A stretch of 64,000 nt of DNA from Gemmatimonadota bacterium (GTDB taxonomy: Bacteria; Gemmatimonadota; Gemmatimonadetes; Gemmatimonadales; Gemmatimonadaceae): contig PMEM01000043.1 in assembly GCA_003155795.1 (NCBI GenBank), positions 31,925 to 95,924 of the forward strand. The letters are read 5' to 3'. The notes beneath the pieces were generated by a model. That model was not told the DNA's origin, searched no databases, and was given only the letters and a program-made list of their open reading frames with translations. Positions 11,977 to 31,511 of the stretch are shown here, one piece after another. Within the stretch, counting starts at the first letter, position 1, and the number at the start of each line of letters is the position of its first letter. Made by a program: the position numbers and the translations under genes.

Positions 11977-12020
11977 CGATCTCGGTCGGCCGAGAGGATT
12001 CTTGTGATGCTACGGCGTGG

Positions 12021-12254
12021 GTGCATATTCCCTGTATGTCACCGCGCCGCCTACTCTTCAAAGCCTCCGTTACGGTTCTCGGTAAGTCGATGTACGGTGC
12101 CGCTGAAGAACTGGGCGTGACCTACAACCACCTGGTCCTGGTACTCGATGGCGATCGGATCGGGAGTGAGCGATTGGAGGCGGGGATCAACAAGCTTCTT
12201 GTCTCGGCACAGGCAACACTTACCCCGGCGCCGGCTCGTCGATCGGCCCGCTGA
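12021..12254 (+). CDS. small putative helix-turn-helix DNA-binding protein
   Basis: 77 aa. KSMYGAAEELGVTYNHLVLVLDG resembles a Cro/YdaS-type HTH. Confidence 0.35.
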   Translation: MHIPCMSPRRLLFKASVTVLGKSMYGAAEELGVTYNHLVLVLDGDRIGSERLEAGINKLLVSAQATLTPAPARRSAR

Positions 12255-12539
12255 TGATCTGTGATCGCGTTGGGAGCGATCGTATCGAAACGCCGCCGGG
12301 CAGATTACGCATGGTTTCAGCTACTCGAACCTTTTCTCAGGGCCTCTCCATACGTCACTCTGTATCGAGAGGTTGATGATGCCCTGTTCCTGGTGCTAAA
12401 CGAATGCGAGTGGCAGGACTGTACGAAGTAGGCAGGGCATTAAGTGGTTAGCGACGGTTCAGTTGGCAGGTTGGGGAGCTACCGCGGGTGCATCAGGTGG
12501 TACGTGAAGTATCACCTGAAATCATCCAGTGAGGTTCCC

Positions 12540-13334
12540 ATGCGTACAGTTGCAACGTCCCAACCTACAATACCCGTTACTCACCAATCAGACCCAACGA
12601 AGCCGGTTGAGTACATCAGCTACGACGGACTCACCGCGATCGTGTCTGGCGAAGTCATGAGCGACGATGGTCGCTACATCGCCCTTGAGGTTGTGGGAGC
12701 CGAGGTGTCAGTTAAGGCAATTGCCGCGGCCCTCGTCATCGGGAAGCGCGTTGATGGATCCGAGAAGATTGTCGAGAAGGATACCGAGCGGATCAAGTTG
12801 GTTGATCGACCATTCCGGATGCTGACCGTACCGCTAACGGGCGGTGTAGTGAGTCTCGTGCTTCTCTCGGCCGATGCGGTTATCACCATGCCGCATGAAC
12901 AGGCACAGCAAACGAAGAAGCGTAAGAAGCGTCTGTCGGCCACCTACGACGACCGGAAGGCCCGCGCCGAGCGTGAACGTGACGATGGAAGCGAGTTGGG
13001 AACCGCTCGTGGCGACGACGAGGACAGGAAGGAGCTGCATTTCGTTACGTTGCCGCACTCTCCCGAGATTGATGGTGTGCCGGGAGGCTTGGCGGATGCC
13101 CTTGCGAGTGTGTTCCGACTTCCATTCCGCCGAGAATGGCTCCCCGATCTTGTGAAGCGAGGCACAGCGGCTGGACTGATTGTGCCATTCACAAGCAGCG
13201 GTACGCTGTCGGGGATGAAGCTCAACCTCATTCCGACCGCATGGGAAGACGTGTACCGTGATGCAGTGTCAGCGGCCCATCGCGCGAAGCGGCGAGAGGC
13301 AGGGCGGGTAGCAAAGGAACAGATCGCCGCATAG
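12540..13334 (+). CDS. hypothetical protein
   Basis: ORF 12444..13334. The ATG at 12540 is preceded by a GTGAGG SD-like sequence. Basic KKRKKR patch. No recognised domain. Confidence 0.4.
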   Translation: MRTVATSQPTIPVTHQSDPTKPVEYISYDGLTAIVSGEVMSDDGRYIALEVVGAEVSVKAIAAALVIGKRVDGSEKIVEKDTERIKLVDRPFRMLTVPLTGGVVSLVLLSADAVITMPHEQAQQTKKRKKRLSATYDDRKARAERERDDGSELGTARGDDEDRKELHFVTLPHSPEIDGVPGGLADALASVFRLPFRREWLPDLVKRGTAAGLIVPFTSSGTLSGMKLNLIPTAWEDVYRDAVSAAHRAKRREAGRVAKEQIAA

Positions 13335-13479
13335 ACAATCGCAACACGTAAGCGCGAATCATCGCGTCGGGGTGTCCACTGGACGCTCCGGCGCGTTTTG
13401 CTTTCGTGCCCCATGTGTCGTCGCGTGAGCGCACCACTCTCCATCTGATAACGCCTCAATCTCATTTGGAGTTTTCACC

Positions 13480-16400
13480 ATGGCCCGACTTGGAGCAGAC
13501 GCAAAAGCGCAGTACTACCCGACGCCTCTTTCGATCATCGAGACGGCGGCGAATATGATCCATGCCCCGAAGGGCGCGACGATCTATGATCCGTGCGCTG
13601 GAACCGGCGCAGCCGTGGCGTTGCTCGCTCGGCTCACTGGCATGACAGCCTACGGGAACGAGCTCGATGCAGAACGCGCAGGGTCAGCTCGAGCCGTGTT
13701 GGCCGAATGCACGGTTGGCCCATACGAGACTGTGACGCGCACGCAGGGCGACCGATTCTCGGCGGTGTTCTTCAACCCTCCATACTCGGATGCAGTAGGC
13801 AATCGTGGGCGTCTCGAAACCCTGGCGCTTCCTCACGCGCTACGGGATCTGGCAACGCATGGCCTGCTATTCGGCGTCCTCCCGATCGACACTGTACGCG
13901 ATTACACGTTCATGACTCGGCTGTGCGCGACTTGCGACGTGGTTTCGGTTGCTCGTTTCCCTGGTGATCTCTACGACTCTTTCAAGCAGGTGGTGGTCCT
14001 TGCCGTGAAACGTGCGAAAGGCACGACCGGCGAGAATGTGTACGTCTTGATGCAGCGGCTTGGACTCACTCCCCAAGCGCCTGTCCGCCATGGGTATTCC
14101 AAGCCTGTTCCACACGCGCTTGATGAATTCACGGTCGAGTATGTCTGCTCCCGCGCAGTGATCGAGGTTCCGGGAAGCCGTGCGCCCGTATCGCTAATCA
14201 ATCCGGCGTCCAATCCAATGGCGCTGCTCACCGATGCGGTTGCGAAGGGCGCAACAGCTACGCCGACGTTCCGGATGCTCACACGTGGCCGCACGTCTGA
14301 ACAGGGTAGGGCGCAAGCCGAGTTTCGCCCGTTGATGCCTCTCAAGCGCGGCCATGCGAGCATGTTACTCGCCGCCGGATTTCTGGACGGTGCGGAGGTC
14401 ACGTGGGAAGGCCGGGACTACGTTGTGCGCGGTTACTCGCGGAAATACCTCACCCGTAGGTCTGAAATTGTGGGTGAGAAGGAAGAAACCGAGAAGGTGT
14501 TCACTCGTGAGAACTTCGCTACAGTGATCGTTCTGGTCGACGCCGTGAACGGTGCGATCACCGAGCTGTCCCCGGATACCGACAAAGAGCGCTACCAGGC
14601 GTTTCTGCTCGATCAGGCTGATGCACTCACCAGCGTAGTTCAGAAGCGCTACCCGGCTCGCTACAATCCAGATTCCCCCGACTTCGCTGACCCTGTGATT
14701 GATGCCGTGCTTGCACGTGTAAAAGCACCAGGGAAACTCGCCGGGCGCGATACGGGCGGCCTGTTGGCGAAGCAGGCCGAGGTTGTTCGTGCAGGAGCGC
14801 GCTCATTGCGCGACGGTGAAAAGACCATCTGGTTTAACGCGCGCATGGGAACAGGAAAGACGCTGCTACTTCCAATCGCGTGGGCCGCATCGGAAGGCAA
14901 GCGGATGGACATTCGTGGATCGAATTCGCCAAAGGCTGTCGTACTTTGCCCGGCGCACCTTACACGGAAATGGGCGCGTCACATTGACGTGATGCTCTCC
15001 GATTTCGGAGCACGCGCGATTGTATGTAAGAAGCCGTCGGACGTTGATGCGGTGTTCAACATGAACAGGCCCGGTGTGGCGGTACTATCGTTCGAGCGGT
15101 CGAAGATGGGTAACGAATGGACGCATGCGGCGAATTGTCGGACCGTTCGCGGCGAGGTTTCGCGTGTCGCCGACAACGGCAAGATCGTTTGCGAGTCCAC
15201 CAACGTTCGTGTCTGTGCATGTCCCAAGTGCGGTACCATCCAACACGAAATTATCCGTGACGAGGAAGGCGACGCCGAGGATATGATGGGCGCCCCGTAC
15301 ACTTGGAGCGATCGCGACGGCCAGCGAGTGCCAGATTTCGGAAACCGTAGAAATCGGTGTGAGAACGAAGCGTGCGGCGAACCGCTTTGGCAGGTGGTCC
15401 CGTTTAAGGGCGGCCGAAACGGGCGCCATGCGCTTCCAAAGCCGGGAGAGTCGCGGTTCAACGGGGGCCTTGCCTACGGCGGAGGTCGCGCGGCGCTCGC
15501 CCAGTATATCTCTTCGCACTACGCAGGTCGTTACTCGGTCATTGGTGACGAGGTACACAAGCTTACCGCATCGGATACTGACCGTGGTTACGCGCTTATG
15601 GACCTTTGCGCCGGTGCAAAAAAGCGAATCATGGGATCCGGGTCATGGTTCAACGGAAAGGCGAGTGCGATTTTCGGTGTGTCGCTCCGAACGCTTCCGA
15701 CCTTTGTTGAGCGCGGTTTCAAGTACGGCGACGAGGCGTCATTCGTGCGCGCATACGGCCTCATTGAACAGGTTGAATACCGTTCCGCTAGCGCAACAGG
15801 CTCGACCAGCTCACTTGGTTACTCACGTCGCGAGGATGGCGTAAGGAGTAAGGAAATCGCCGGATGCCAGCCCGACTTGATGGCTCTCATTCTCCCAAAC
15901 TGCCTTTTCTTGGAGTTAGCGGATTTGGGTGAAGCGCTCCCACCTTACAACGAATACAGCGTCCACGTCGATCTACCGGAGGACGAGGAAATTAAGGTTG
16001 CGTTCCAGTCGATTGCTACGTTTCTCGAACAGGGACGCAAGGAGGCAAGGAAGGGCGATCCAACAGCGTTGAGCAGTGGAATTCAGCTCGCACTTGGTTT
16101 TCCGTATCGGATGGAAGGTGCGGAAGAAATCATCCATCGTCGCCGTGACAATGCGGTAATCTTTTCGATGGAAGGGCGCACAATGCCAGCGGGCGGTTGG
16201 CCGTTGGATCAATTGCTCGTGCGATATTGCCGCGCAGAGCGCGCGCGTGGACGCAAAGTGTTGGTTTATCTCGGTCAGATGGTACGCCGTGACGCGAGTG
16301 GTCGCCTGATTCACCTACTCACACAAGCCGGCCTACGCGTAGGCGTGTTGCGTCCGAACGTCGCCGCCGAGGGCCGCGAAGCGTGGCTTGCGGCGATTGA

Positions 16401-16977
16401 ACCAACCATCGACGTACTGTTTACGTCGGCGCCGTTGGTTGAAACTGGACTTGACCTCTACGCGTTCCCATCGATTGTGAATTTTGGGACAGAGCGTAGC
16501 ATTTTCACCTTGCAGCAGTCGTCGCGCCGTTCGTGGAGGTTGGGCCAGACGGAGCCGGTTGAGGTTTCGTTCTGGACGTATCGCGGAACGCTCTCCCACG
16601 ATGCGTTGCCAACCATCGCGCGCGGGCTTGCAGCAGCCGCGCGGTTCAACGGCAACACGGCGGAAGGCTTGGCGGCGACGTCGGAGGAAGGCGACGTTGA
16701 TTTGGTATCCGCGTTGATGCGCCAAGTTTTGACCGGCACCATCGAGCGTGGTACGCCGTTTCCGACCCTCACAATCCCGAGCGACGAGGAAGTAGCCGAA
16801 ATGGAGAAAGTGTCGGGGGTGATGATCCGTCCCGCGCCACACGCTCCGGCTCTCCCATCCGAAGTTGACGAGGCCACGGATGCAGTAGTCGCGGAGCCCG
16901 CAGCCATGGGTGGGGATGATTGGAAAGGTCGGAAAGTGGCGCAGATGTCACTATTCGATGCGCTGCTTGCGGCATAA
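13480..16977 (+). CDS. N6-adenine DNA methyltransferase fused to SNF2/DEAD-like helicase
   Basis: 1165 aa. Methyltransferase motif I IYDPCAGTGA and motif IV FFNPPYSD. Walker A ARMGTGKT, DEVH box VIGDEVHKL, Cys4 insert CACPKCG...CENEACG. C-terminal helicase motif QQSSRRSWRLGQ. Confidence 0.85.
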   Translation: MARLGADAKAQYYPTPLSIIETAANMIHAPKGATIYDPCAGTGAAVALLARLTGMTAYGNELDAERAGSARAVLAECTVGPYETVTRTQGDRFSAVFFNPPYSDAVGNRGRLETLALPHALRDLATHGLLFGVLPIDTVRDYTFMTRLCATCDVVSVARFPGDLYDSFKQVVVLAVKRAKGTTGENVYVLMQRLGLTPQAPVRHGYSKPVPHALDEFTVEYVCSRAVIEVPGSRAPVSLINPASNPMALLTDAVAKGATATPTFRMLTRGRTSEQGRAQAEFRPLMPLKRGHASMLLAAGFLDGAEVTWEGRDYVVRGYSRKYLTRRSEIVGEKEETEKVFTRENFATVIVLVDAVNGAITELSPDTDKERYQAFLLDQADALTSVVQKRYPARYNPDSPDFADPVIDAVLARVKAPGKLAGRDTGGLLAKQAEVVRAGARSLRDGEKTIWFNARMGTGKTLLLPIAWAASEGKRMDIRGSNSPKAVVLCPAHLTRKWARHIDVMLSDFGARAIVCKKPSDVDAVFNMNRPGVAVLSFERSKMGNEWTHAANCRTVRGEVSRVADNGKIVCESTNVRVCACPKCGTIQHEIIRDEEGDAEDMMGAPYTWSDRDGQRVPDFGNRRNRCENEACGEPLWQVVPFKGGRNGRHALPKPGESRFNGGLAYGGGRAALAQYISSHYAGRYSVIGDEVHKLTASDTDRGYALMDLCAGAKKRIMGSGSWFNGKASAIFGVSLRTLPTFVERGFKYGDEASFVRAYGLIEQVEYRSASATGSTSSLGYSRREDGVRSKEIAGCQPDLMALILPNCLFLELADLGEALPPYNEYSVHVDLPEDEEIKVAFQSIATFLEQGRKEARKGDPTALSSGIQLALGFPYRMEGAEEIIHRRRDNAVIFSMEGRTMPAGGWPLDQLLVRYCRAERARGRKVLVYLGQMVRRDASGRLIHLLTQAGLRVGVLRPNVAAEGREAWLAAIEPTIDVLFTSAPLVETGLDLYAFPSIVNFGTERSIFTLQQSSRRSWRLGQTEPVEVSFWTYRGTLSHDALPTIARGLAAAARFNGNTAEGLAATSEEGDVDLVSALMRQVLTGTIERGTPFPTLTIPSDEEVAEMEKVSGVMIRPAPHAPALPSEVDEATDAVVAEPAAMGGDDWKGRKVAQMSLFDALLAA

Positions 16978-18296: not shown

Positions 18297-18698
18297 CGAC
18301 GTGGGAACTGGTGAACGCGCTACCGGCTGAGAACGTCGCCGGCGTGCTGCACATGGTGCGCGCCGAGCACGGCGGCACGTGGAAGTGTCCGGCGTGCGGG
18401 GGCCTCGCAGCTCCGGCCGTTCAACCCGAACGCTGGCGGGCAGGGTTTCGTGTACTGGAGCGGCTGCGGTGAAAAGTCTTTCACGTCGTTGAGTGGGCTC
18501 CATCGGTCTGGCGTGCCGACAGGAGACGCGCTGTGCGAGCCGTCGCGCCGGCCGCGCGAGATTGAGGATTTGCGGCGTACGATCACGCGGCCCCAGTTCC
18601 GTCATGGCAACGAAGATCAAGGAGGCGGCTCGCGAGGCCTTCTTGGGCCGGGAAGGGCGGGAGCGGTAGGGGGATTCGCATCAACCATGTGTCGGTGA
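18293..18698 (+). pseudogene. possible frameshifted primase-type zinc-ribbon gene
   Basis: The GTG at 18293 overlaps the upstream TGA. Frame 1 reads ...WKCPACGG. After the G5 run at 18398-18402, the next frame reads ...FNPNAGGQGFVYWSGCGEKS. Together these resemble a Prim_Zn_Ribbon motif. Confidence 0.3.
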
Positions 18699-18789
18699 CC
18701 GTGCACATCCCCGGCATCCCGGCCGTAGACTTACAAGACGAAAGAGGTGCGCGCGTCGCTATCACTTCGGTCTGTTTCCGCGGAGCCAT

Positions 18790-19629
18790 ATGGAATCCAC
18801 AATATCAGCGCAAGAAGCTGAGAGCGAAAGAAACGAACGTATCTTCCAGAGCCTTCCAAAGCTCGGGTCCGATGCTTATATGGACCTGCTCAAACACGGG
18901 AGTGCGTCCGACCTGCCTGCGCCAGTGCTGGTTCGCGCGTATAGACAGCTCGGTACAGGCCGCGCGGCCGAGGCAACACTGGGCCGTCTGCTTACAAATG
19001 ACGCCACCTATGGCTACCTGCGGCCGCTTCGAAAGATGGCGCGGCGAAAAGTCTCGAGCCGTGACTGGTTCAGCGCTGAGGACCTGGTAGACCAGTCAAT
19101 CAGTGTGATCTCGGAGGCACTCGCTGGGCCGCGCGGTGACGGCGCATGCGAGCATTGGATCAGCTTCCTGAAGCAGCGTATGGAGGATGCATATCGTTTG
19201 TTCAACGGTCGCCGCCGTGGCCGGCAGGATCCGCCTCGGGCGGATCCGCGCCAAGATCCGGAGTCGGGACTATGGTCGGACCCAGCGGATGACCCAGGCG
19301 CACTTCACGCTTCCTGGCACGGTCGTGTGGACTCGGGACATGAGGAGTGGCTGGAGGCGTTCATCACGCGCACGCTCGCCACGATCACCGACACACGCAT
19401 CCGCGAGGTTGCCCAGGATCTCTTTAGTGCCGCGCCTTCGCCAATCTCATCACAGGCTGGCATCGAAGAGGGCGGGAAGATACCTCTAACTGAGCGATAC
19501 GGGGTCGACCGTTACAAGATCTACAGGTGGCGCCGAATTGCGCGGGCAAAACTCTTGGCAGCGCTCCGCAATCAGAATGAACGTGAAGTTGACCTAAGCT
19601 GGCTGCAAGACTCAGCCGACGACGAATGA
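18790..19629 (+). CDS. sigma-70/ECF-like regulatory protein (putative)
   Basis: Region-2-like SAEDLVDQSISV and region-4-like LTERYGVDRYKIYRWRRIARAKLLAAL. Confidence 0.4.
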   Translation: MESTISAQEAESERNERIFQSLPKLGSDAYMDLLKHGSASDLPAPVLVRAYRQLGTGRAAEATLGRLLTNDATYGYLRPLRKMARRKVSSRDWFSAEDLVDQSISVISEALAGPRGDGACEHWISFLKQRMEDAYRLFNGRRRGRQDPPRADPRQDPESGLWSDPADDPGALHASWHGRVDSGHEEWLEAFITRTLATITDTRIREVAQDLFSAAPSPISSQAGIEEGGKIPLTERYGVDRYKIYRWRRIARAKLLAALRNQNEREVDLSWLQDSADDE

Positions 19630-19704
19630 CAGCAGCGATCGCTGTGCAAGCCCGACGAACGACAGCGCAACGGATCGTAGAGAAACGGGCAAGATCACTG
19701 AGAC

Positions 19705-20454
19705 ATGATAACTATGGAGTCTAAGATGCCGAACACCACCCCCGCGACCGACCTCATCCAGCAACTGGTTGTACGACTAGAGCATGCATGGAACACGAGC
19801 CATGACGACAGGCTTGTCGATCGCTTGGCTGCCGAGCACCCATCGTTCGCTGAGGAACTGTACGACTTCTTTGCTGACCTCGTAGAAGCGGAGTTGGAGA
19901 GAGATCATCCGTGTCCCGAACTTGAGGCCGCTGACGAGCGTACGCGGCAATGGTTGGAGCGCGAGGGTTACAGGAATGTGGCCGAGGCGCGCCGCTTGGA
20001 TGCAATAGGGCGAACGCCGACGCTTGGCTCCGCAGGATTGTCCTCTGGTCTATCCCCAGCCACACAGTCTGTTGCCTGGCCCGCGAATATCGCGAACGAT
20101 CGGGAGCTTGGCGCGCCTCGGCCATTCTTAGGCCTGCTGAAAGAGGCAACTAGCAAACCCACGGCTGCGCTCGCGGTCGCGCTGGAACTGACAGCGGGAT
20201 TTCTCGTCGATATCTCCGACAATGCCGACCTACTGCCTGACGCTGCGCGGGCGGAACTTGCCCATCGTGCGGAGAAAGCGTGGGGACTAGATCGGCGTCG
20301 TAGTTTAGCAGCACTGGCGACGGTAGACCACCAGTTTCAAAAGGCCGCTTCACGGGAGGGGCCGTACGAAGGTCACCGGGTGACGTACGCCGAGGTTGTT
20401 GCTCGATCCGGTATGAACTCGCAGCAAAAGCGGTACTGGCTTCTCTTAGCTTGA
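19705..20454 (+). CDS. hypothetical protein, possible XRE/ImmR-like HTH partner of the downstream peptidase
   Basis: 249 aa. LLKEATSKPTAALAVALELTAGFLVDI resembles an HTH. Lies immediately upstream of an ImmA/IrrE-domain gene. Confidence 0.35.
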   Translation: MITMESKMPNTTPATDLIQQLVVRLEHAWNTSHDDRLVDRLAAEHPSFAEELYDFFADLVEAELERDHPCPELEAADERTRQWLEREGYRNVAEARRLDAIGRTPTLGSAGLSSGLSPATQSVAWPANIANDRELGAPRPFLGLLKEATSKPTAALAVALELTAGFLVDISDNADLLPDAARAELAHRAEKAWGLDRRRSLAALATVDHQFQKAASREGPYEGHRVTYAEVVARSGMNSQQKRYWLLLA

Positions 20455-20538
20455 CGATTCGTCGATCGTCTACGAAGAATAGGCGAGCTGAGCATGTAAC
20501 CCATCGTTGTACGTCACCTCCGACTCTTCACCTCTTTC

Positions 20539-23500
20539 ATGCGCACACTCGAGCACGCGCGCGCCAAAGGCCGCGAATACCGCACCATTCTCGGGGCCAA
20601 TCCAGATGGGCTCTGTGGCCGTATCGTGCAACACATCGCTGAGATTTGGGGGATCGAAGCGGTTGCCATCAGTCGTGCTCAGATGGGGGGAAGTGTGGGG
20701 GAGGTTAATCCGAGCTCCGGCGTCCTCAAGTATGACCGTACGCTCTCGGACGCCGATAAACTCGACCTGTTCGCGCACGAGCTTGGGCATCTCGTTCTAC
20801 ACAAGCGACTAACAGATCCAAACATCCCTCGTGACCCGGTGCTAGGCTCTGCCTATACAAATTCCGGGTCGGGGGCAATCGCCCGTTATAGCCCGCGCGC
20901 AATGGAAGAGGCACAAGCCAGCGCGTTTGCGACCGAGCTCATATGTCCGAGTGCCAAATTGTTCGCAGATTGGCGCGCCGAGAACACGGCGACTGCGGCG
21001 TCGCTTGCTGAGCGCTTTGGCGTGCCGGTCAAAGTAGCGCATGCGCAGCTAGCGCATGCGCTTCACGAGTTCGCACTGGGGGCGAATGATCCGATAGCGA
21101 AGCCACAGCGCGCGATCGCGTTTACGCCACGTCAGCTTGAGGCGGCGCGCTTCACCGGGAAGCCTGCCCTTGTCGATGCGGGTCCAGGCACTGGAAAGAC
21201 CGCGACGCTCATCAGACGGATTCAGTTCCTGCTTGAGGAAAGCAGCGCCCGACCAAGCGAGATCCTTGTTCTAACATTCAGCAACGAAGCTGCACAGGAA
21301 CTGCGCGAGCGTGTCACGTTAGCGTTTGGCGCTGACGTGACTGAAGAGATGACAATCGCAACGTTCCATGGCTTTGGAATGACGTTCCTGCATCATCACG
21401 GACAGCATGTTGGCTACGATACTGCCTTCACGATACTAGACGAGGACACACAAGCTGAGCTAGTCACGTCAATCCTTGGAAGGGTGCCGTGCGGCCAGAT
21501 CCTCACGCTCCGAGATCCCCAGGAGACCGTCGATGCAGTTGTAGAGCACATCAATTATTGCAAGCAACGGCTGCGCGACTGTGACGCACTTCAAGAATGT
21601 GTCAGCGCTTGGACACCAACACCTGACGAAACTGACGCGAATGCGGCGTCTGGGCAATTCGCCGGGCTCTATCGCGAGTACGAATCCGCCAAGCACGCAG
21701 CTAAGCAAATCGACTTCGCCGATTTGATCATGTTACCTCTGCGCGTTCTGGAACAGCAACCCGAAATCGCTGCTGCTTACCAAAGCAAGTACCCGTGGGT
21801 GCTAGTCGACGAGTTTCAGGATGTGACCCGCGCCACGTCTCGGCTACTCAGGCAGCTGTGCGGGCCAACCAACCCGCCTTGGGTGGTTGGTGACGCGCGC
21901 CAGGCGATCTATCGCTTCCTGGGTGCAGCGCCGGAAAATGTACGTGAGTTCAGTACAGATTTCCCGGGCGCTGTAGTCTTCGAGCTCGAGGAGAATTATC
22001 GGTCCGCCGCGCCCGTAGTTCGAGCAGCCAATGAGCTCGCGACTCTAATGGAAGATCCGGAGCGCGCCGATGGTCAGGTTTATGAGCGATGGCGGGCGGC
22101 TACCGATCAGACACCGCTCGGCGATATGCCCATCGTAATCGCTGAAGCGACGTCTGACTACGCGGAACGCGAAGGCGTTGCCGATCAAGTGCAAGCCTGG
22201 CTTGAGACTGGACAGGTCACACCTAGCGAGATTGCCGTTCTTGCCAGACGGAACATCGACGTGCGGAATATTATTCTAGCCCTAGCTGCGCGCGGTGTGC
22301 GAGCACAAGCAAGCGGTCTGCTGACCGCTGACGGGGCGGCGGGGGACCTCGCCGCAGCCGTCACCCTGACCGATGCGCCGGTTGCTTCGATCCCACGCGT
22401 CGCGTTTGCGCTTGGCCGGGCGCGGTTCCCAGTAGGCGCCATAAACGCTGTAGTGCATCACGCGCTGGCAACGTTCCGTAAAGACCGTGGGTTCGACATA
22501 GCTGCGCCCGATAGCGGTGCCGAACTCGCGTCAGAAGTTGAGTTTGCTCGGGCGTGTCTCACGCGAGGGCACTTTACCGCCGACGGGTTTGCAACGCTCG
22601 CCACATTCCTCTTCGATGGCGGCTGCTACCTTCGCGTCCTACTTGATGCCGCAGATGGTGCCGAGCGCGCGATGGCACTCATGGAGATCGTAAGCGCGCT
22701 ATCGCTTGCCGTGAGCTACCGCGTCACGCACCCGGCTATGCCGCCTGCGCTTGCCCGAGTTGGCTTCGCCAGTCATCTTCGCGCACGGTTGGCTGAGACG
22801 ACACCGCTTCCGATCGTCGCGCGCGCGCGACCGGACGCCGTTAGGGTAATGACTTGTCATGCGTCAAAAGGCCTAGAGTTCCCCTGTGTCATCGTCGCCG
22901 GCCAAACAGTACCAAAGGCGCGAGCGAAGTACCCTTGGCTCCCACCCTCGTGGCGCCCCGCCACGGACGAAGACGTCGAGCAAGGGGACGCGCTCCTCTT
23001 CGTCGGTGTTACTCGCGGCCAGCGCGCTGTAGTCGTGTCATTCCCGAAGCAGGCAGGAGAGGGAGTACGCGGCCACGCGAAGCAGGTTGTTCGCCTGCTG
23101 GCGCGTTGGCGCGCCGCGCACGAGTTAGAAGTAGTCTCATGGACAGCGAGCGGGAATCCTACCTCCGAAGTCACCGTCGGCCTCATTTGGGGTGGACACA
23201 CACCGGCTGTGCTCAACCTGTCCGCGCTCGACACGTCAACCTGCGCAATTCAGACCTACCTGGAGGAGTTCTTGGGGGTATCCTTCCCGATTGCCGCGCG
23301 CGCACTGTACCCGGTCTTCTTCTCCGTTACGCGCCGCGTCCTTCGGCAGGTCGTCACGCGCGCCAATGAGACAGGACGGCTCGTCGAAGAGGCGGCAGTA
23401 CGTTCGATGGTCGCCGATGCGTGGCCTGAAGGAGAATTCGCTGAGCATCCCCACATTGGGATCTACCTTGATGCGACGCTTCGTATGGTGCTTGATTTCG

Positions 23501-23973
23501 CAAAGTTGTACCGACCTGTAGGAGTGCCGATTACATCGTTCGATCCCGAACTCACCGTTACTGCCGAAGGCGAAGAGCCAGCAGTGCGGCTCGATCTGAT
23601 TGGCCATTTTCTCCAGGCTGATGGGCGCATCGTCGCCCTTAGCTTCCGACCTGAATCACTCGGTGCAGACGCTAAGGATGGGGTTCTTAATTGGAGTGCG
23701 AAGCGCATCAATAGTAAGAAGAGGATGTCTTTCGTACTCCTGGAGCGGCGTACCCCAGGCATACTTCCGCACTTTTTTTCCGGAGCCGACGGGGAGATGT
23801 TCAGTTTCAAGTGGAGCACGCGGAAAGACTCGCTAACGAACGAGACGGCAAAGGTGATCGGTAAGCTGGAGGCGCTCTCGCACGGTGAGTTTGCGACCAA
23901 AATCTCGGCGTATACATGCGACCGCTGTCGCGCTCGTGTTAGCTGCCCTCACTGGGTGGGAGCACTCGGTTAG
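20539..23973 (+). CDS. ImmA/IrrE (M78) metallopeptidase - UvrD/PcrA helicase - Cas4/AddB-type PD-(D/E)XK nuclease fusion
   Basis: 1144 aa. HEXXH in FAHELGHLVLH. Helicase motifs DAGPGTGKT, VLVDEFQDV, ENYRS, CHASKGLEF, VGVTRG. C-terminal nuclease with TSTCAIQTYL and CDRCRARVSC cysteines. Confidence 0.85.
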   Translation: MRTLEHARAKGREYRTILGANPDGLCGRIVQHIAEIWGIEAVAISRAQMGGSVGEVNPSSGVLKYDRTLSDADKLDLFAHELGHLVLHKRLTDPNIPRDPVLGSAYTNSGSGAIARYSPRAMEEAQASAFATELICPSAKLFADWRAENTATAASLAERFGVPVKVAHAQLAHALHEFALGANDPIAKPQRAIAFTPRQLEAARFTGKPALVDAGPGTGKTATLIRRIQFLLEESSARPSEILVLTFSNEAAQELRERVTLAFGADVTEEMTIATFHGFGMTFLHHHGQHVGYDTAFTILDEDTQAELVTSILGRVPCGQILTLRDPQETVDAVVEHINYCKQRLRDCDALQECVSAWTPTPDETDANAASGQFAGLYREYESAKHAAKQIDFADLIMLPLRVLEQQPEIAAAYQSKYPWVLVDEFQDVTRATSRLLRQLCGPTNPPWVVGDARQAIYRFLGAAPENVREFSTDFPGAVVFELEENYRSAAPVVRAANELATLMEDPERADGQVYERWRAATDQTPLGDMPIVIAEATSDYAEREGVADQVQAWLETGQVTPSEIAVLARRNIDVRNIILALAARGVRAQASGLLTADGAAGDLAAAVTLTDAPVASIPRVAFALGRARFPVGAINAVVHHALATFRKDRGFDIAAPDSGAELASEVEFARACLTRGHFTADGFATLATFLFDGGCYLRVLLDAADGAERAMALMEIVSALSLAVSYRVTHPAMPPALARVGFASHLRARLAETTPLPIVARARPDAVRVMTCHASKGLEFPCVIVAGQTVPKARAKYPWLPPSWRPATDEDVEQGDALLFVGVTRGQRAVVVSFPKQAGEGVRGHAKQVVRLLARWRAAHELEVVSWTASGNPTSEVTVGLIWGGHTPAVLNLSALDTSTCAIQTYLEEFLGVSFPIAARALYPVFFSVTRRVLRQVVTRANETGRLVEEAAVRSMVADAWPEGEFAEHPHIGIYLDATLRMVLDFAKLYRPVGVPITSFDPELTVTAEGEEPAVRLDLIGHFLQADGRIVALSFRPESLGADAKDGVLNWSAKRINSKKRMSFVLLERRTPGILPHFFSGADGEMFSFKWSTRKDSLTNETAKVIGKLEALSHGEFATKISAYTCDRCRARVSCPHWVGALG

Positions 23974-24101
23974 CAGATGCGCTAAACGCGGGATTCGGCC
24001 TACCCATCGACGCACATCAGCCTGAGTGCGGCCGTAGGAGGTGTAGGGCGGCCAGAGTGGCTGCTCTGCACCTCTTTCGTTTGTTACTCTGGAGATACAA
24101 A

Positions 24102-24437
24102 ATGACCACAACGGCACACGGCGCAGACGCGTCGCAGGACGAAGCAGGGGACGAGCGCCACGGACCACCGCACGTCCAGCTACAAGTCCAGACCCCACGC
24201 GGGCTCTGGAGCATGACTGAGCCGGAAGAGGCGCCCCGCCGGCCAGACTATCCCATCTCCACAAAGATCCAAGTCGTGATCGACGACGCACGAACAGTCT
24301 TCAAGTTCGTCGAGAATGACAGCAAGTACACTTTGTTCCTGGGTGGAGAGATGCTTGCGCCCGAACGGACGCTCGCGAGCTATCATATTGCGCCCGACGC
24401 ACTCTTGGTGCTCTCCGTCCAAGGTGGGAACGCGTGA
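24102..24437 (+). CDS. bilA: ubiquitin-like beta-grasp protein (Bil-type Ubl)
   Basis: ATG at 24102 with a GGAGA SD. Ends LAPERTLASYHIAPDALLVLSVQGG-NA, which parallels the ubiquitin C-terminus. First gene of the Ubl-E2-JAB-E1 operon. Confidence 0.8.
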   Translation: MTTTAHGADASQDEAGDERHGPPHVQLQVQTPRGLWSMTEPEEAPRRPDYPISTKIQVVIDDARTVFKFVENDSKYTLFLGGEMLAPERTLASYHIAPDALLVLSVQGGNA

Positions 24438-24892
24438 GCGTTCCCGTCTCTCTGTCACTTGAGACCGTGCGCTGCGAACTCGCCGCTGCGACAGCTTATG
24501 CCGCGGCTGCGGGGCTCGAGCTTGATGCCAGTGAATTGAGCGAGAATACGCTTCAGTTTCATGTTGTGTTCTGGAACATGCAGCGCGAGCGATTCACGGC
24601 AGAATTCGATTGTCGTGATTACTCAATGTATCCGCCGACGATTGAATTCGTGGATGCGACCCGCACCCTGCGAGGTACGCCCGCTCTTTATCCAGCAGGG
24701 TTCCATGGAATGCCATGCGTATGCGCGCGCTATAATCGCAAAGCATACACAGAGCGCGGCGGGCCTCACGGAGACTGGCGGCTGGTTGACTGGCAATTAC
24801 CTACCGGCAACGGGGTTGCAATCGACAGTCTGGCTATGATTCTAAGCGACCTTCATAGTAAGATTTCGCAGTCTGCAGGGAGACTGGGATGA
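24434..24892 (+). CDS. bilB: E2-like ubiquitin-conjugating enzyme homologue
   Basis: GTG start overlaps the Ubl stop (GTGA). UBC-like core FTAEFDCRDYSMYPPTIEFV. Candidate catalytic Cys in FHGMPCVCARYN. Confidence 0.75.
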   Translation: MSVPVSLSLETVRCELAAATAYAAAAGLELDASELSENTLQFHVVFWNMQRERFTAEFDCRDYSMYPPTIEFVDATRTLRGTPALYPAGFHGMPCVCARYNRKAYTERGGPHGDWRLVDWQLPTGNGVAIDSLAMILSDLHSKISQSAGRLG

Positions 24893-25422
24893 GTGACAAG
24901 GTCCCCATCATCTACATCCCTGCAACCTTACTCGGTGCCACAGGGATGCTTCTCGCTAGCTTCGCAGAGGAGTTACCCTCCGAAGGCATTGTTTACTGGT
25001 TCGGACTCGAGCTCGGGCCGCGGGCCATCGTGGCGTCGCTCGTCGTCCCAAATGCCGACTCATCTCGTGGAGACATCGTGACTTCAGCTGCCGCGAACGC
25101 TGAAGCACTTGGGGCGGTTGTGGGAACCCCGCTCGTTCTCCTCGGACAAGCTCACTCGCACCCACGCGCGAATGTACGCCACTCGCCTGTCGATGACCGC
25201 GAGACGTACGCGCAGTTTCCCGGTGCACTCTCAGTCGTTGTGCCGTTCTTCAGCCGGAACGGGATCGACCTCTCACGCTGCGGTGTGCATCGTCATCTAG
25301 CGGGCCGGTATCAGCTTATCCCACGCGACCAAGTGCAACAACACGTGAGAGTCGTTCCTGGCATCGTTGACTTCCGGCGTGATCGATTCACTACTGAGAT
25401 GTCCCGTGCACGTGCACTCTGA
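24889..25422 (+). CDS. bilC: JAB/JAMM metalloisopeptidase (deubiquitinase-like)
   Basis: ATGA overlap with the E2 stop. JAMM motif HSHPRANVRHSPVD (HxHx7Sx2D) with an upstream Glu (PSEGIVYW). Confidence 0.85.
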   Translation: MSDKVPIIYIPATLLGATGMLLASFAEELPSEGIVYWFGLELGPRAIVASLVVPNADSSRGDIVTSAAANAEALGAVVGTPLVLLGQAHSHPRANVRHSPVDDRETYAQFPGALSVVVPFFSRNGIDLSRCGVHRHLAGRYQLIPRDQVQQHVRVVPGIVDFRRDRFTTEMSRARAL

Positions 25423-26920
25423 ACAGGCGATAACATCGCCGCTCACGCCGGCCGACCGACTTCGTGTTGCTGATCGCTGGCGGACGGCGGAGTCGTTCTA
25501 CCGGGAGCGCGATGACCGCACCACGCGTAATGTTGGTGACCTCGCGACACACGCGTACCGTGCCGTTGAAATCCACGTCGATCCCGGCGCCGCGGCTAAT
25601 CTCACCGTGCAGCGTATGGCACTCACCGTAGCAAATCTCACCGCCCGTTGGGCGCGTCGGGTGCGTATTGTGCTCGCAGCCGACGCGCCTCTTGCGCCCA
25701 TTCTCCGTCGGGACGGTGCGGCGTGCCTCAGCGATCGACTGATTCGCGAGATGTGCGCGGCTGACCCGTTCGGCGAGTTCAATATAGCTGTGACGGGCAC
25801 AAGTGTCGCCAATGACGGCCGAGCACCGTTACGCCTCTTTGTCGGCCCATGGACGCTCCACCCACAAGCATTGAGCAGTGAAGACTATCAGGTGCACGCG
25901 TCATCGTGGACAGCTTTGGGGAGACGCACGGGAACGCAAGGGCGGCTTCTAGGAATCATGAACGGAGCAGAAGCAACCGCAGCGGCGGCAGGCTTAGCCG
26001 GCGCCCTCGGTGCCGCAGACCTTTTCAAGCGAGCTGTTGGTCACGTCCACGCGAACTGGATGCCTACATTCGCTTGGGATACCTGGGCGGGTATCCTCGA
26101 CACCTCACCGATGGCATGGTCAACGGTTGGACATCGCTCTGTACCGGAGCACTTGGATTTCGGCGAGACTCTGCTCGCGGGCGTTGGTGCGATCGGCTCA
26201 GCTTTTATCTACCTCGCTGATTTTATGCCGCTCAGCGGTGCGCTCACGCTGCTCGACCGAGACGCCATCGAGATCACGAACTTGAACCGAACGCCGCTAT
26301 TTACGGTCATGCACGCGCTCGACGAACCGAAGAAGACGGGAGCAGTTGCTGCGTACCTCACCGGCCGAGGTGTCAAAGTCGAAAGTCTGACGGGACCATG
26401 GCGGGAGCACGCAGCGGCGCTGGCAGAGCGGCCTTTCGACGCTTGGATCAGCCTCATAAATGAAGACGGTGCGTGGGCTGAGGTGCCGTTCCAACTCCCT
26501 CCTGTAGTCCTCCACGGTACGACGACGAGCGGCTGGGGCTTCGGTATGGGGCGACACATCCCAGGGCGCGAGGACTGCACGCTCTGCCGCCTCCCGCGGC
26601 CGGCCACGGAGTTCCGCGGGCCTTGTGCCCAGGGCGAAATCGCCCTGGGTGTGGACCGGGAGCCCGTCCGGGCATCGCTCCCGTTCCTCTCGACGGCGGC
26701 CGCCGCCTTGGTACTTACCGCGTACCTTCAGCTTGGGGAAGGATCTGCTGCGGTGTCATTACCGAACGACGTGTCCGCTGATCTAGGCTCCGGTCTCCCG
26801 GCGCTGATCGCCCTGCATCGTGGTCCAAGCGTGGGGTGTCGAGGATGCCATGCGCAAAGCTCTGTGGCATGGCACTCACGCGGCGGTAGAGGTCGATTCG
26901 CACATTACTCAACCCCGTGA
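25367..26920 (+). CDS. bilD: E1-like ThiF/MoeB-family activating enzyme
   Basis: Rossmann motif LLAGVGAIGSAF followed by LLDRDAIEITNLNRTP. CTLCRLP Cys pair. The roughly 265-aa N-terminal extra domain is consistent with an inactive adenylation domain. The real start may be GTG at 25406 or 25412, overlapping the JAB stop. Confidence 0.8.
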   Translation: MTSGVIDSLLRCPVHVHSEQAITSPLTPADRLRVADRWRTAESFYRERDDRTTRNVGDLATHAYRAVEIHVDPGAAANLTVQRMALTVANLTARWARRVRIVLAADAPLAPILRRDGAACLSDRLIREMCAADPFGEFNIAVTGTSVANDGRAPLRLFVGPWTLHPQALSSEDYQVHASSWTALGRRTGTQGRLLGIMNGAEATAAAAGLAGALGAADLFKRAVGHVHANWMPTFAWDTWAGILDTSPMAWSTVGHRSVPEHLDFGETLLAGVGAIGSAFIYLADFMPLSGALTLLDRDAIEITNLNRTPLFTVMHALDEPKKTGAVAAYLTGRGVKVESLTGPWREHAAALAERPFDAWISLINEDGAWAEVPFQLPPVVLHGTTTSGWGFGMGRHIPGREDCTLCRLPRPATEFRGPCAQGEIALGVDREPVRASLPFLSTAAAALVLTAYLQLGEGSAAVSLPNDVSADLGSGLPALIALHRGPSVGCRGCHAQSSVAWHSRGGRGRFAHYSTP

Positions 26921-26996
26921 ATATGACCCGCAGCGCTCTGGCCAACTCAAGAATATGACGGTTCGGTCACTATCGATCGGACCTAGCATGTCGAAT

Positions 26997-27119
26997 GACA
27001 AAGTCGTTGCGACTAGAGTAGCTAATATCGGCGAAAAGCGTCAAAGTGGTTGCGAATTTGGGTCGCCGCCGGCCAAAGGCGATGCGACTGACCCGCGCTC
27101 GGTCAAAGACGATGCGACC
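26997..27119 (+). repeat. four spaced copies of an 18-bp subterminal repeat (left end)
   Basis: GACAAAGTCGTTGCGACT (26997), GTCAAAGTGGTTGCGAAT (27040), GCCAAAGGCGATGCGACT (27072), GTCAAAGACGATGCGACC (27102). Spacing 43/32/30 bp. Confidence 0.8.
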
Positions 27120-27209
27120 GTCACTACCGGGGTATTTTCTGGTAGATCTTTGTCACCGAATAGACTCAGGATCAACAGGGAGGTGCCCCCACGTTCATAA
27201 ACTGCAACG

Positions 27210-27782
27210 CTAAACTGGCGCAGTGGTAAGGCCCAGTTGGAGCAGAGCTAGTGGTGCAGTAAGAGGACGTGCTTGCCAGAAGCTCCCAAATAACAAGAAC
27301 GGCAAGGCGATAAGTGCGCCCGTAAGTGCACTCGGCTGGATGAGGACTTCGAGCACGAGATCGAAGACCCAAATCCGCCTGAGAGGCTCCAATAGGTCCC
27401 ACGACGAAATCCTATCGCCCTCGTTAGCGGCTGCATACGCGCCGCTCTTCGATATGTCTGCCACCGGGCTGGTCGGTACAGTTTTAGCTACCTCCCGATG
27501 GAACTCGCGTAGGACGGCATATGCTTCGGCGATGTCTTGAAACCTGCGTGTTGCTACGGCACGCTCCCCCGGCGTGAAAAAACGGTCAGGATGGAATCGA
27601 CTAGCGAGAGTTCTGAAGCGTGAACGAATCTCATCAAGACTTGCAGTCGACTCTAGCTGTAATAGGGCGCATGCCTCCACCATATTCATATTGTTACCGG
27701 AAGGTGCGGCGCCCAAGCCTTGCTTGCTATAGAGCGTATTGCCATAAATAGGAAGGCGATCGTTCGACGATCGCCTGACCAC
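27210..27782 (-). CDS. J-domain (DnaJ-like) protein with C-terminal transmembrane segments
   Basis: LDEIRSRFRTLASRFHPDRF...FQDIAEAYAVL has the HPD motif. Hydrophobic C-terminus ALTGALIALPFLLFGSFW. An internal Met start is possible. Confidence 0.7.
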   Translation of the reverse strand: MVRRSSNDRLPIYGNTLYSKQGLGAAPSGNNMNMVEACALLQLESTASLDEIRSRFRTLASRFHPDRFFTPGERAVATRRFQDIAEAYAVLREFHREVAKTVPTSPVADISKSGAYAAANEGDRISSWDLLEPLRRIWVFDLVLEVLIQPSALTGALIALPFLLFGSFWQARPLTAPLALLQLGLTTAPV

Positions 27783-29682: not shown

Positions 29683-31511
29683 GGGGTCTGCTCAGATTTT
29701 GGTGAAAGGTGAGGCGAGGAGTTAGGCTTCAGGGATCGTTTTGGAGGTGCTGCACCACATGGATGCATTGACTGCGAGCCCGCTGTGCCCGTCTCCGCTG
29801 GAGCTACAGCTCGCCGAGATTCGCTTTGCCGCGCCGGAGCTGATCGTCACCGCAACGGCTCGCCGACGAGTGGTCGCCTGCCCCAAGTGTGGCCACGCCA
29901 GCACGCGGGTGCACAGCCGGTACAGTCGGACGCTCTCCGATCTCCCATGGCACGGGCTACGAGTGCGCCTTGACGTCCACGTTCGCCGCTTCTTCTGCGA
30001 TGTACCGGGCTGCAAGCGGCGGATATTCACCGAGCGACTCCCGAAGACCGCCTCCTCCTATGCCCGGCGCACCGCACGTGCAGCGTCGGCGCTGGAAGCT
30101 ATCGGGCTTGCTCTTGGCGGTCGTGCTGGCGCCCGGCTCGCAGCAGCACTGGGTCTCGCCGGTGCTCCATCGGAAATCCTCTCGATCCTATCCGCCATTC
30201 ATGCCGTCGTAAGCGACTGCAGTAGTGACCGCGCTACATCCACTGTGCGGGTGTTGGGCGTGGATGACTGGGCGTGGCGCAAGGGCCAGCGGTATGGCAC
30301 GATCTTGGTCGACCTGGAGCGGCATCACGTAATCGACTTACTACCGGACCGTGAGTCTGACACGCTCGTCGCATGGCTGTGTGCGCATCCCGGGGTCGAG
30401 TTCATCAGCCGGGACCGCGCAGGTGGTTACGCAGATGCTGCAAGGCGCGGAGCGCCCGGCGCCATTCAAATCGCTGATCGTTTCCACCTGCTGCGCAATC
30501 TGACCGATGCCGCACAGCACGCGTTGGAACGACATCACACCATCGTGCGAGCAATCGGTCTCGATGCAAAGCCGCCGACGCCGGTATTGCTGAAACGTGG
30601 TGGCCCTGTGTCACGCCGATGGACACTTGGAGCGAGCGATCTGCCAGCCAATCCACCGAACGATCCGCCGCTCGCGGAACAGCGCAAGCTCGCCCGGCGT
30701 GCTCGGCGACAGTCGCGCTACGACGAGATGATCGCGCTTCGTACGGGTGGCGCGTCGGTCGCGGCCATCCACCGCTCGCTCGGGCTCAGCCGAAAGACGA
30801 TAATGCGCTGGACAGGAGCAGGCGCCTTCCCCGAGCGGCAGCCCGCAGTGAGAAGAGAGACGTCGTTAACACCACACGCTGAGTATCTCGCCGAGCGGTG
30901 GCGTGGCGGATGTCACAACGTGACCCAACTGTGGCGCGAGCTCCGCGACGGGCGCGGATTTCACGGTGGCCTCACCACTGTACTGGCGTGGGCCCGATTG
31001 CATCTGCGTGGAACGGTGATACCGAAGATACCGGAAGCATCGCTCGCGGTGACGGCGCGTCCGACATCACGTCCGTCCTCACGCCGCGCGGCCTGGCTGC
31101 TGACCGCTCCATTGGATCAGCTCAAAGCGCCGGAACTGCGCTACGTCGAGGCGATCTGCACCGAGTCGAGCGCACTTGCTGCCGTGCATAGTCTCGCGAT
31201 GGAGTTTCGCGGTATGCTCAAGACTCATGATCCTAACGCGCTCGCGCTCTCGCTCGATACGGCCGAGCGCAGCGAGCTTCGATCCCTTGCTGCGGGTCTG
31301 CGGCGTGACAAGGACGCGGTGCTCGCAGCCATCCTCTTCCGCTGGAGTAACGGGCAGGTCGAAGGCCAGGTGAACCGGCTCAAGCTCATCAAGCGCACGA
31401 TGTACGGTCGGGCCGGCTTCGCGCTGCTCCGACGACGTGTGCTCGCCGCCTGACTGCAACGAACCCCAACTCCGAGAGGCGAGTGCCTTCATCAAAAGTT
31501 TGTCAGACCCC
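29683..31511 (+). mobile_element. ISL3-family insertion sequence
   Basis: Imperfect terminal IRs of about 26 bp sharing the 8-bp tip GGGGTCTG (29683-29709, and reverse complement of 31486-31511). They enclose a single ISL3 transposase gene. No target-site duplication seen. Confidence 0.8.
29741..31453 (+). CDS. ISL3 family transposase
   Basis: N-terminal zinc finger CPKCGH...RRFFC. DDE region DDWAWRKGQRYGTILVDLERHHVIDLLPDRE. C-terminus NGQVEGQVNRLKLIKRTMYGRAGFALLRRRVL. Confidence 0.9.
   Translation: MEVLHHMDALTASPLCPSPLELQLAEIRFAAPELIVTATARRRVVACPKCGHASTRVHSRYSRTLSDLPWHGLRVRLDVHVRRFFCDVPGCKRRIFTERLPKTASSYARRTARAASALEAIGLALGGRAGARLAAALGLAGAPSEILSILSAIHAVVSDCSSDRATSTVRVLGVDDWAWRKGQRYGTILVDLERHHVIDLLPDRESDTLVAWLCAHPGVEFISRDRAGGYADAARRGAPGAIQIADRFHLLRNLTDAAQHALERHHTIVRAIGLDAKPPTPVLLKRGGPVSRRWTLGASDLPANPPNDPPLAEQRKLARRARRQSRYDEMIALRTGGASVAAIHRSLGLSRKTIMRWTGAGAFPERQPAVRRETSLTPHAEYLAERWRGGCHNVTQLWRELRDGRGFHGGLTTVLAWARLHLRGTVIPKIPEASLAVTARPTSRPSSRRAAWLLTAPLDQLKAPELRYVEAICTESSALAAVHSLAMEFRGMLKTHDPNALALSLDTAERSELRSLAAGLRRDKDAVLAAILFRWSNGQVEGQVNRLKLIKRTMYGRAGFALLRRRVLAA

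Follow-up and report, generated by a model that had tools for sequence, protein, structure and literature searches.

When a bacterial locus carries what looks like a full set of ubiquitin-like conjugation enzymes, does the set stand alone, and what would switch it on? The question is raised by a 64,000-nucleotide stretch of a Gemmatimonadota genome (assembly GCA_003155795.1, contig PMEM01000043.1, positions 31,925 to 95,924 of the forward strand; hereafter the window, with positions counted from its first nucleotide). An earlier note, made from the sequence, had described at 24102-26920 a complete operon for a ubiquitin-like protein (Ubl), an E2, a JAB (JAMM) peptidase and an E1, in the order of the BilABCD antiphage system. 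The gene order Ubl-E2-JAB-E1 is indeed that of BilABCD and all four protein assignments held; what needs qualifying is the completeness, since on comparative sequence evidence the four genes are the downstream half of a conserved seven-gene cassette at 18703-26920, and the plain Bil label, since the operon is a distant branch and neither canonical Type I nor Type II. The model that we favour, with a confidence only a little above even, is that a DNA-sensing helicase-protease frees a sigma factor and that the sigma factor turns on Ubl conjugation. The cassette reads as follows (aa, amino acids; nt, nucleotides).

18703-18726, plus strand: P1, a promoter-like bipartite motif GCACA-N15-CCGT, 63 nt before the p279 gene
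18790-19629, plus strand: p279, a divergent sigma factor resembling the extracytoplasmic function (ECF) group, 279 aa (Sigma70_r2, SigR)
19705-20454, plus strand: p249, unclassified, 249 aa, placed by synteny (public gene calls start at 19726)
20539-23973, plus strand: a 1144-aa fusion of an M78 peptidase, a UvrD/Rep helicase and a four-cysteine domain
20680-21051, plus strand: M78/CapP-like metallopeptidase part of the 1144-aa protein, aa ~48-171 (Peptidase_M78, 1.1e-7)
21124-23046, plus strand: UvrD/Rep superfamily 1 (SF1) helicase part of the same protein, aa ~196-836 (UvrD-helicase, 2.1e-64; UvrD_C, 3.2e-17)
aa ~890-1144 of the same protein, plus strand: Cas4/AddB-like four-cysteine domain (PDDEXK_1, weak)
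24012-24035, plus strand: P2, a promoter-like motif GCACA-N15-CCGT, 66 nt before the Ubl ATG
24036-24076, plus strand: a 19-bp hairpin directly after P2 (dG -37 kcal/mol, z -6.0)
24102-24437, plus strand: gene 1, pro-Ubl (BilA-like), 111 aa from the ATG
24434-24892, plus strand: gene 2, E2 (BilB-like), 152 aa
24889-25422, plus strand: gene 3, JAMM/JAB peptidase (BilC-like), 177 aa
25406-26920, plus strand: gene 4, E1 (BilD-like), 504 aa from GTG 25406; its open reading frame (ORF) opens at 25367 (517 aa)

The unity of the cassette is seen in its distribution, which we followed by tblastn of the window proteins against all fetched loci (cited below, where needed, by our L numbers). A homologue of the 1144-aa protein lies directly 5' of the Ubl gene in all 27 scanned loci of the clade that have enough upstream DNA (over a few hundred bases), and homologues of p249 and p279 follow the same order in 22 of those 27; two long contigs, L075 and L077, add further intact seven-gene examples. 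In 29 intact loci, with E1 identities of 44-72%, the genes adjoin one another in an unchanged order and orientation. The flanks are not conserved across these loci, neither the upstream 245-aa gene nor the downstream DnaJ-like and 113-aa genes.

The two halves also share a promoter-like motif, GCACA-N15-CCGT(A/T), which was spotted by reading the intergenic DNA of all loci and which stands 50-90 nt upstream of the p279 gene and again in the spacer between the helicase and Ubl genes. Its strict form would be expected 0.77 times in the 64-kb window and is found three times, P1 and P2 being two of these. A relaxed form is present ahead of p279 in 13 of 16 loci and ahead of the Ubl gene in 19 of 20 (background 0.07 per kb-strand), and the inspected loci that miss it carry one-base variants. 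The variants change together: in L004, L015 and L023 the -35 element reads GCTCA at both sites. This shared, co-varying motif is, as judged from the DNA, the strongest evidence for treating the two modules as one regulatory unit. ECF sigma factors typically regulate their own genes and use a -10 element that contains CGT. A generic sigma-70 promoter scan gave matches at chance level, and Rfam found no match over 18300-27300. The hairpin after P2 is conserved in position in other loci and not in sequence, and it may be terminator-like or a leader structure; in L001 (~6566-6600), L003 and L016 a U tract comes after the hairpin, as in intrinsic terminators.

Are the four downstream ORFs what they were taken for? 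They are genuine genes and not chance ORFs, because their products recur jointly, in unchanged order, in over 50 public loci from metagenomes and metagenome-assembled genomes (MAGs), at protein identities of 44-71%. The translational coupling described before reads exactly as claimed: GTGA at 24434-24437 joins the GTG of gene 2 to the stop of gene 1, and ATGA at 24889-24892 the ATG of gene 3 to the stop of gene 2. The GTG start that had been proposed for gene 4 inside the end of gene 3 agrees with public gene calls at 25406 on an identical metagenome contig, with a 17-nt overlap. Gene 1 has GGAG 7 nt 5' of its ATG at 24102 (the alternative start GTG 24057 would fall within the strong hairpin) and ends CAA GGT GGG AAC GCG TGA, that is Q-G-G-N-A-stop. 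The peptides quoted in the earlier note were all found again: LLVLSVQGGNA, FTAEFDCRDYSMYPPTIEFV, FHGMPCVCARYN, HSHPRANVRHSPVD, GVGAIGS and LLDRDAIEITNLNR.

The folds and catalytic residues of the enzymes are established by sequence comparison together with structure prediction. The product of gene 4, previously called a ThiF/E1 enzyme, does carry a ThiF domain, a single one in its C-terminal half (Pfam, 2.4e-8), and its AlphaFold2 model (pLDDT 83, pTM 0.89) matches BilD of Ensifer aridi (8tyz_A) over its full length (Foldseek E 3e-19), followed by human UBA7. On account of this full-length match, the extra N-terminal domain of about 265 aa, which had been noticed without a fold and is confirmed here, is by the model an inactive adenylation domain (IAD), and the C-terminal domain the active one (AAD); a newer Pfam release names the N-terminal domain BilD_N, with a weak match. 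Four invariant cysteines, C404, C407, C491 and C494 (numbering of the 517-aa ORF), match the structural zinc Cys4 site described for BilD. A fifth, C420 (C407 in the 504-aa protein), lies in a crossover loop of about 30 residues between the CxxC and the next conserved helix, of which residues 409-430 are predicted to be disordered.

An exhaustive profile search with the E1 gave 225 representatives of 50% identity clusters at E <= 1e-30; above 450 bits there is only a handful, the window's own clade, and then a continuum of proteins of 445-480 aa. Clustered at 90%, the homologues at E <= 0.001 number at least 281, and the best 120 share 50-94% identity with the window E1. Soil metagenomes are the main source, and the homologues with a named host belong to Acidobacteria, Pyrinomonadaceae and Gemmatimonadetes. 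Among viral contigs the search for relatives of the E1 returned only short ThiF-like stretches.

For the E2, an AlphaFold2 model built on 43 homologues (pLDDT 80) has as its only credible PDB matches chains D and C of E. aridi BilB (8tz0; Foldseek probability 0.98-0.99, TM 0.61-0.68), in keeping with the UBC-like fold and cysteine claimed for it. Cys97 and His112 are invariant among orthologues; the former is the equivalent of E. aridi C138 ('SPFLCM' against 'TPCVCM') and the latter of His151, and a Cys-His pair was reported by the published E. aridi work to be conserved in both Bil types. In our reading of the sequences, Cys97 also seems to line up with the sole cysteine in the matching motif of the L056 E2. 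The positions at +6 and +8 from the cysteine, E. aridi Glu144 and His146 of the CEHH motif, are Lys103 and Tyr105 here, as counted by offset and not by residue-level alignment. The protein has no long disordered loop and is 152 aa long, against 204 aa in E. aridi BilB. Its fold came from family profiles and predicted structures, since single-sequence PDB searches with the E2 and with the E1 gave nothing useful; the prokaryotic E2 families of Pfam, which the earlier note had proposed to search, did not match it.

In the product of gene 3 all residues of the JAMM motif are present (E32, H89-x-H91, S99 and D102), and the protein matches E. aridi BilC (PDB 8tyx) at 2.2e-9, with E32 falling on the mutated catalytic E33 of the latter. 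In the Ubl, a variable low-complexity N-terminal tail of about 25-45 aa precedes one domain-sized conserved core that starts at QTPRGLW, and the terminal LSVQGGNA is identical in 18 of the 18 orthologues examined, G108-G109 being invariant. Its C-terminal half aligns to ubiquitin such that G108-G109 fall on ubiquitin G75-G76 (hhalign E 2.6e-5), which agrees with the beta-grasp-like character claimed before for the protein; the alignment covers the C-terminal ~35 residues, so that we infer, from sequence, a beta-grasp-like core. Pfam matches of the Ubl are weak (ubiquitin 0.018, DUF2604 0.022), and hhalign of its family against E. aridi BilA was not significant. BilC has been published to cleave pro-BilA after a conserved glycine, and the invariant GG-NA tail fits this reported cleavage.

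Where, then, does the operon belong among the known systems? Searches with PADLOC, suggested as a check, gave weak scores: BilD matches at 5e-12 (43 bits) and BilC at 1.9e-6, with BilB weak (0.018 for the window E2; 18 of 23 orthologues match, the best at 5e-4) and no match for BilA. On the scale of the BilD model, the 43 bits of the window E1 stand against 51 bits for the E. aridi Type II BilD, and E. aridi BilB and BilA themselves score nothing. Two Bil types have been published, Type I (Collimonas; a tandem, ISG15-like Ubl ending in Gly) and Type II (a CEHH E2 and a helical E1 CYS domain of about 80 aa set into the crossover loop), and the Type II Ubl is usually single-domain and trimmed by BilC. 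As far as sequence comparison can place it, the operon is a well-separated branch of the E1 lineage without a CYS domain and fits neither type. BLASTP scores of the window-clade E1 are as follows.

Against the sister clade (L052, L053, L056): 120-181 bits
Against four-gene operons on Natrinema and Mesorhizobium plasmids: 94-151 bits
Against E. aridi BilD: 18-54 bits

A third type equidistant from Types I and II, as the PADLOC calibration had suggested, was softened as a proposal, because the BLASTP matrix groups the clade with E1s that have no CYS domain.

With Type I BilABCD (Collimonas sp. OK412; Millman 2022, Hör 2023-24), compared by its published description, the operon shares the Ubl-E2-JAB-E1 gene order, an E1 of ~450-500 aa with the catalytic cysteine near the C-terminal part of the active domain (Collimonas C385), and an E2 with Cys and an adjacent His, not the Glu/His of CEHH. 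E1s without the Type II insertion carry this catalytic cysteine in a short crossover loop, as the window E1 would, and the PADLOC Bil models are the best defence-model matches for the operon. It differs from Type I in that its Ubl appears to be one beta-grasp-like domain with a variable tail and not two fused domains, in that this Ubl ends GG-NA in all orthologues whereas the Type I Ubl ends in Gly, and in the obligatory upstream module of sigma factor, p249 and helicase-protease. Type II BilABCD (CEHH/6C; Ensifer aridi TW10; Chambers 2023-24; PDB 8tyz, 8tz0, 8tyx) provides the best structural matches for the E1, E2 and JAB proteins, and it has in common with the window a single-domain Ubl precursor with residues past the reactive Gly and an IAD-AAD pseudo-dimeric E1 with a zinc Cys4 site. 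In contrast to Type II, E1 similarity is very low (18-54 BLASTP bits against 95-180 to non-Type-II relatives), the window E1 has no helical CYS domain of ~80 aa, and the window E2 (152 against 204 aa) has neither the long disordered loop nor equivalents of Glu144/His146.

Bub operons (6E/DUF6527) and Cap2/Cap3 of Type II CBASS also link bacterial E1/E2/JAB chemistry to CapH/CapP-type regulators; unlike them, the window has no DUF6527 protease and no E1-E2 or Ubl-E2 fusions, and its matches to BubCD and to the PADLOC E1-E2 models are marginal. Haloarchaeal plasmids also carry Bil-like operons of four genes (small protein, ~158-aa protein, MPN/JAB, ThiF E1), among them L073 on the Natrinema zhouii plasmid NZ_CP084885.1 (149342-152104) and others on Halomarina and Haloferacaceae plasmids; judged by these sequences, the family reaches Archaea. 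The literature that we searched gave no description of this clade, of a 'Type III Bil', of an M78-UvrD fusion, of a Bil-UvrD-M78 association or of an ECF/IrrE/helicase link, although the search was incomplete and is not proof of novelty.

As to the three upstream genes, 11 of 17 orthologues of p279 match Sigma70_r2 (best E 2.1e-6), and the family profile matches the sigma-2 domain of SigR (PDB 1h3l) at 3e-4. No match for p249 was found in Pfam (searched member by member), PADLOC or the PDB; it holds the position that a CapH-like helix-turn-helix (HTH) protein holds in the sister clade, and its C-terminal half (residues ~138-249) is common to the middle gene of modules that stand alone. When p249 and p279 were compared by hhalign with the HTH protein and the sigma protein of L056, the expected segments were aligned in both cases, neither significantly (E 0.22 for p249). 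In L001 (2032-3114, a Pyrinomonadaceae MAG) the p249 orthologue seems to bear an extra N-terminal DUF2442 (1.3e-18) if the longer ORF is used.

The N-terminal 195 aa of the 1144-aa protein match the PADLOC capP model at 6.9e-8 (orthologues up to 1.6e-11), whereas the M78 domain alone found no match by sequence in the PDB. Orthologues keep HExxH, GPGTGKT and DEFQD. In the C-terminal domain C902, C1127, C1130 and C1136 are invariant in the family and the usual acidic and lysine catalytic positions of nucleases vary, so this domain is probably nuclease-dead. An active helicase-nuclease effector, considered as a candidate, became less likely in view of this variation at the PD-(D/E)XK catalytic positions.

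What such a trio could do is suggested by its relatives. CapP has been published to be activated by single-stranded DNA (ssDNA) and to cleave the repressor CapH; 24 CBASS systems add a sigma factor to capH-capP, and 15% of Type II Bil operons carry CapH/CapP. In the sister clade (L056, L053) the corresponding places are taken by a clear ECF sigma factor, an XRE-HTH protein and a stand-alone CapP-like peptidase, followed by Ubl-E2-JAB-E1; in the window clade, to go by the domain matches, the CapP-like peptidase is joined to a DNA motor. Like CapH/CapP, the capH-capP-sigma triads and IrrE/DdrO of Deinococcus, the module has an M78 HExxH peptidase beside a small partner and a sigma-70-family sigma factor, and as in the triads it lies upstream of an immune-type operon. 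In contrast to CapH/CapP, Pfam shows neither an HTH nor a GAF part in the peptidase, which is joined instead to a complete UvrD-type helicase followed by a four-cysteine PD-(D/E)XK-like domain; its partner p249 has no recognisable XRE HTH. The helicase part resembles UvrD/PcrA/Rep, AddA/AddB and GajB of Gabija, with an SF1 core containing all motifs and strong matches to GajB and PcrA/Rep at aa ~190-590, and the C-terminal pattern C...CxxCx5C is that of the Fe-S PD-(D/E)XK domains of AddB/Cas4. What sets it apart from helicase-nucleases and GajB is the added N-terminal M78 peptidase, the absence of a GajA partner, nuclease catalytic residues that are not conserved, and scores far below equivalog cut-offs.

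We propose that the cassette would work as follows. The 1144-aa helicase-protease would sense abnormal DNA (ssDNA, ends or replication intermediates) that arises in phage infection or DNA damage, and its activated M78 peptidase would cleave p249, which would otherwise hold p279 in check. The freed p279 would act at both GCACA-N15-CCGT promoters and so transcribe the Ubl operon as well as its own gene. The JAMM peptidase would then remove the C-terminal Asn-Ala from pro-Ubl, exposing Gly-Gly; the active domain of the E1 would adenylate the terminal glycine and take the Ubl as a thioester on the crossover-loop cysteine C420; and the Ubl would pass to Cys97 of the E2, with His112 assisting. The E2 would attach it to lysines of target proteins, an attachment that the JAMM peptidase could also reverse.

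These steps do not deserve equal trust. The conjugation chemistry is very probable in the light of the models and active-site residues, and transcription of the Ubl operon that depends on p279 is likely on the strength of the promoter motif. The DNA-type trigger and the protein targets are inferred; an antiviral role is evenly balanced in our judgement, and cleavage of p249 by the M78 peptidase falls somewhat short of even. Several observations weigh against the model. The window's own copy of p279 is under the Sigma70_r2 threshold, and no sigma region 4 model matched any of the p279 orthologues. No HTH or anti-sigma domain is detectable in p249, whose role is read from gene position. One ancestral change may account for the co-variation of the -35 variant, and transcripts that begin at P2 could be stopped by the strong hairpin that lies ahead of the Ubl start. 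The alignment to ubiquitin leaves most of the Ubl uncovered. Lastly, for each of the 7 distant helicase homologues that were sampled (on long contigs, at 43-50% identity; L065, L066, L067/L068 and L069-L072) the three-gene module comes without Bil genes: p279-like and/or p249-C-terminal-like genes lie upstream, and Ubl, E2, JAB and E1 are absent. As these loci present it, the dependence is one-way: the Bil-like clade is always found with the module, and the module occurs without Bil. Because it does so, the module has a function of its own and need not be a mere regulator. As for the promoter motif, among the stand-alone modules only L067 has it and most do not, so that their regulon cannot be inferred. 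A divergently transcribed gene for a single-stranded DNA-binding protein (SSB) and a ~245-aa gene lie beside the stand-alone module in L065, L066 and L072.

The stand-alone modules keep alive two rivals, in which the helicase has a function of its own or is itself the effector. In the latter, which we think unlikely, the helicase fusion would act as effector, with the Ubl cascade as its regulator or partner: Ubl would be put on the helicase, on p249 or on DNA-bound proteins to activate, localise or reset a DNA-directed response, much as in ubiquitin DNA-damage signalling and not necessarily against viruses. The strict link to a UvrD-type motor speaks for it, and so does the short E2 (152 aa), which has no counterpart of the long variable loop by which Type II BilB is proposed to select phage targets, such that a partner may supply specificity; L077 has genes for a DinB-type polymerase, SRAP and a ligase as neighbours, and published work leaves stress-response roles possible for Bil and Bub operons. 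Yet the nuclease-like domain has no conserved catalytic residues and effector activity is not evident, and the M78 domain and sigma factor point to signalling.

The other rival, two independent systems side by side in a defence island (a sigma/p249/M78-UvrD module for defence or repair and a separate Bil-type operon), is improbable to our minds. It can draw on the three-gene modules found alone in L065-L072, on the four-gene Bil-like operons that do without the module on Natrinema and Mesorhizobium plasmids, and on defence or mobile genes near some loci (AbiEii, a restriction endonuclease (REase), an MmeI-type restriction-modification (RM) gene). It is at odds with the adjacency, order and orientation kept in 29 intact loci while the flanks change, with one motif before both modules whose variants change together, and with the sister clade, which keeps the sigma/HTH/M78 trio at the same place. 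A sulfur-carrier pathway of MoaD/ThiS plus MoeB/ThiF type, with a small protein that is thiocarboxylated and never conjugated, had been named in the earlier note as its refutation and is in effect excluded: the ThiF domain, the weak NCBIfam MoeB/ThiF matches and the GG end that sulfur carriers share are outweighed by sub-threshold scores (12-18 bits where the cut-offs lie at 150-750), an E1 that resembles BilD and eukaryotic E1s in being an IAD-AAD pseudo-dimer, an E2 with catalytic Cys/His and a JAMM peptidase translationally coupled to the E1, and the lack of molybdopterin or thiamine genes nearby.

Returning to the model of a helicase-protease that frees a sigma factor, we venture one extension, tentative and on balance doubtful: M78-UvrD fusions may be a new kind of cytoplasmic DNA sensor, in which engagement of the motor switches on the protease, the partner is destroyed and an ECF-type sigma factor is freed, the output here being Ubl conjugation, whose targets might be selected not by the minimal E2 but with aid from p249 or the helicase.

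The cassette lies between mobile-element-type genes on one side and an ISL3 transposase and a lanthipeptide cluster on the other. Upstream, 635-16977 (plus strand) is a gene run typical of conjugative or integrative elements; downstream, 44499-52349 (minus strand) looks, from its gene content, like a class I lanthipeptide gene cluster. The neighbouring features are these.

635-1690, plus strand: N6/N4 DNA methylase, mobile-element-type flank
1767-3629, plus strand: RecJ-like DHH protein, mobile-element-type flank
4406-5620, plus strand: SLT transglycosylase, mobile-element-type flank
7711-9009, plus strand: N6/N4 DNA methylase with Mrr_N, mobile-element-type flank
13480-16977, plus strand: DUF6094 methyltransferase-helicase, 1165 aa, mobile-element-type flank
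27210-27782, strand opposite to the E1 gene: DnaJ-domain protein (Pfam)
29741-31453: ISL3-family transposase (Zn_ribbon_ISL3 and DDE_Tnp_ISL3), ~2.8 kb downstream of the E1 gene
46202-48187, minus strand: C39-peptidase ABC exporter, adjoining the LanB gene
49089-52349, minus strand: LanB-type lanthipeptide dehydratase (Lant_dehydr_N 3e-140, Lant_dehydr_C 7e-56)

Related loci are likewise found near AbiEii, near restriction genes (REase, MmeI-type RM) or near DNA-damage genes, such as those beside L077. In L076 (9024-11476) a lone E1 of the clade (55% identity) lies immediately behind an IS240 transposase, and the locus has an RHS/YD-shell toxin gene on its upstream side and an MmeI-type RM gene on its downstream side; we read this locus as a decayed copy truncated by an insertion sequence.

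For the family as a whole, the consequences are of several kinds. Current defence models barely detect the clade, and annotation pipelines are therefore likely to overlook it. Where it stands alone, the three-gene module may represent a more widespread regulatory device, so far undescribed, that responds to DNA. In the literature only one Type I system has a known target, and the triggers and target choice of Bil and Bub systems are otherwise largely open; by tying its operon, physically and it seems in transcription, to a helicase-protease, a sigma factor and a defined promoter motif, this clade makes the trigger of a bacterial ubiquitin-like system testable. If the sensor extension ventured above is true, these bacteria would have a pathway that leads from the sensing of DNA to inducible ubiquitin-like tagging.

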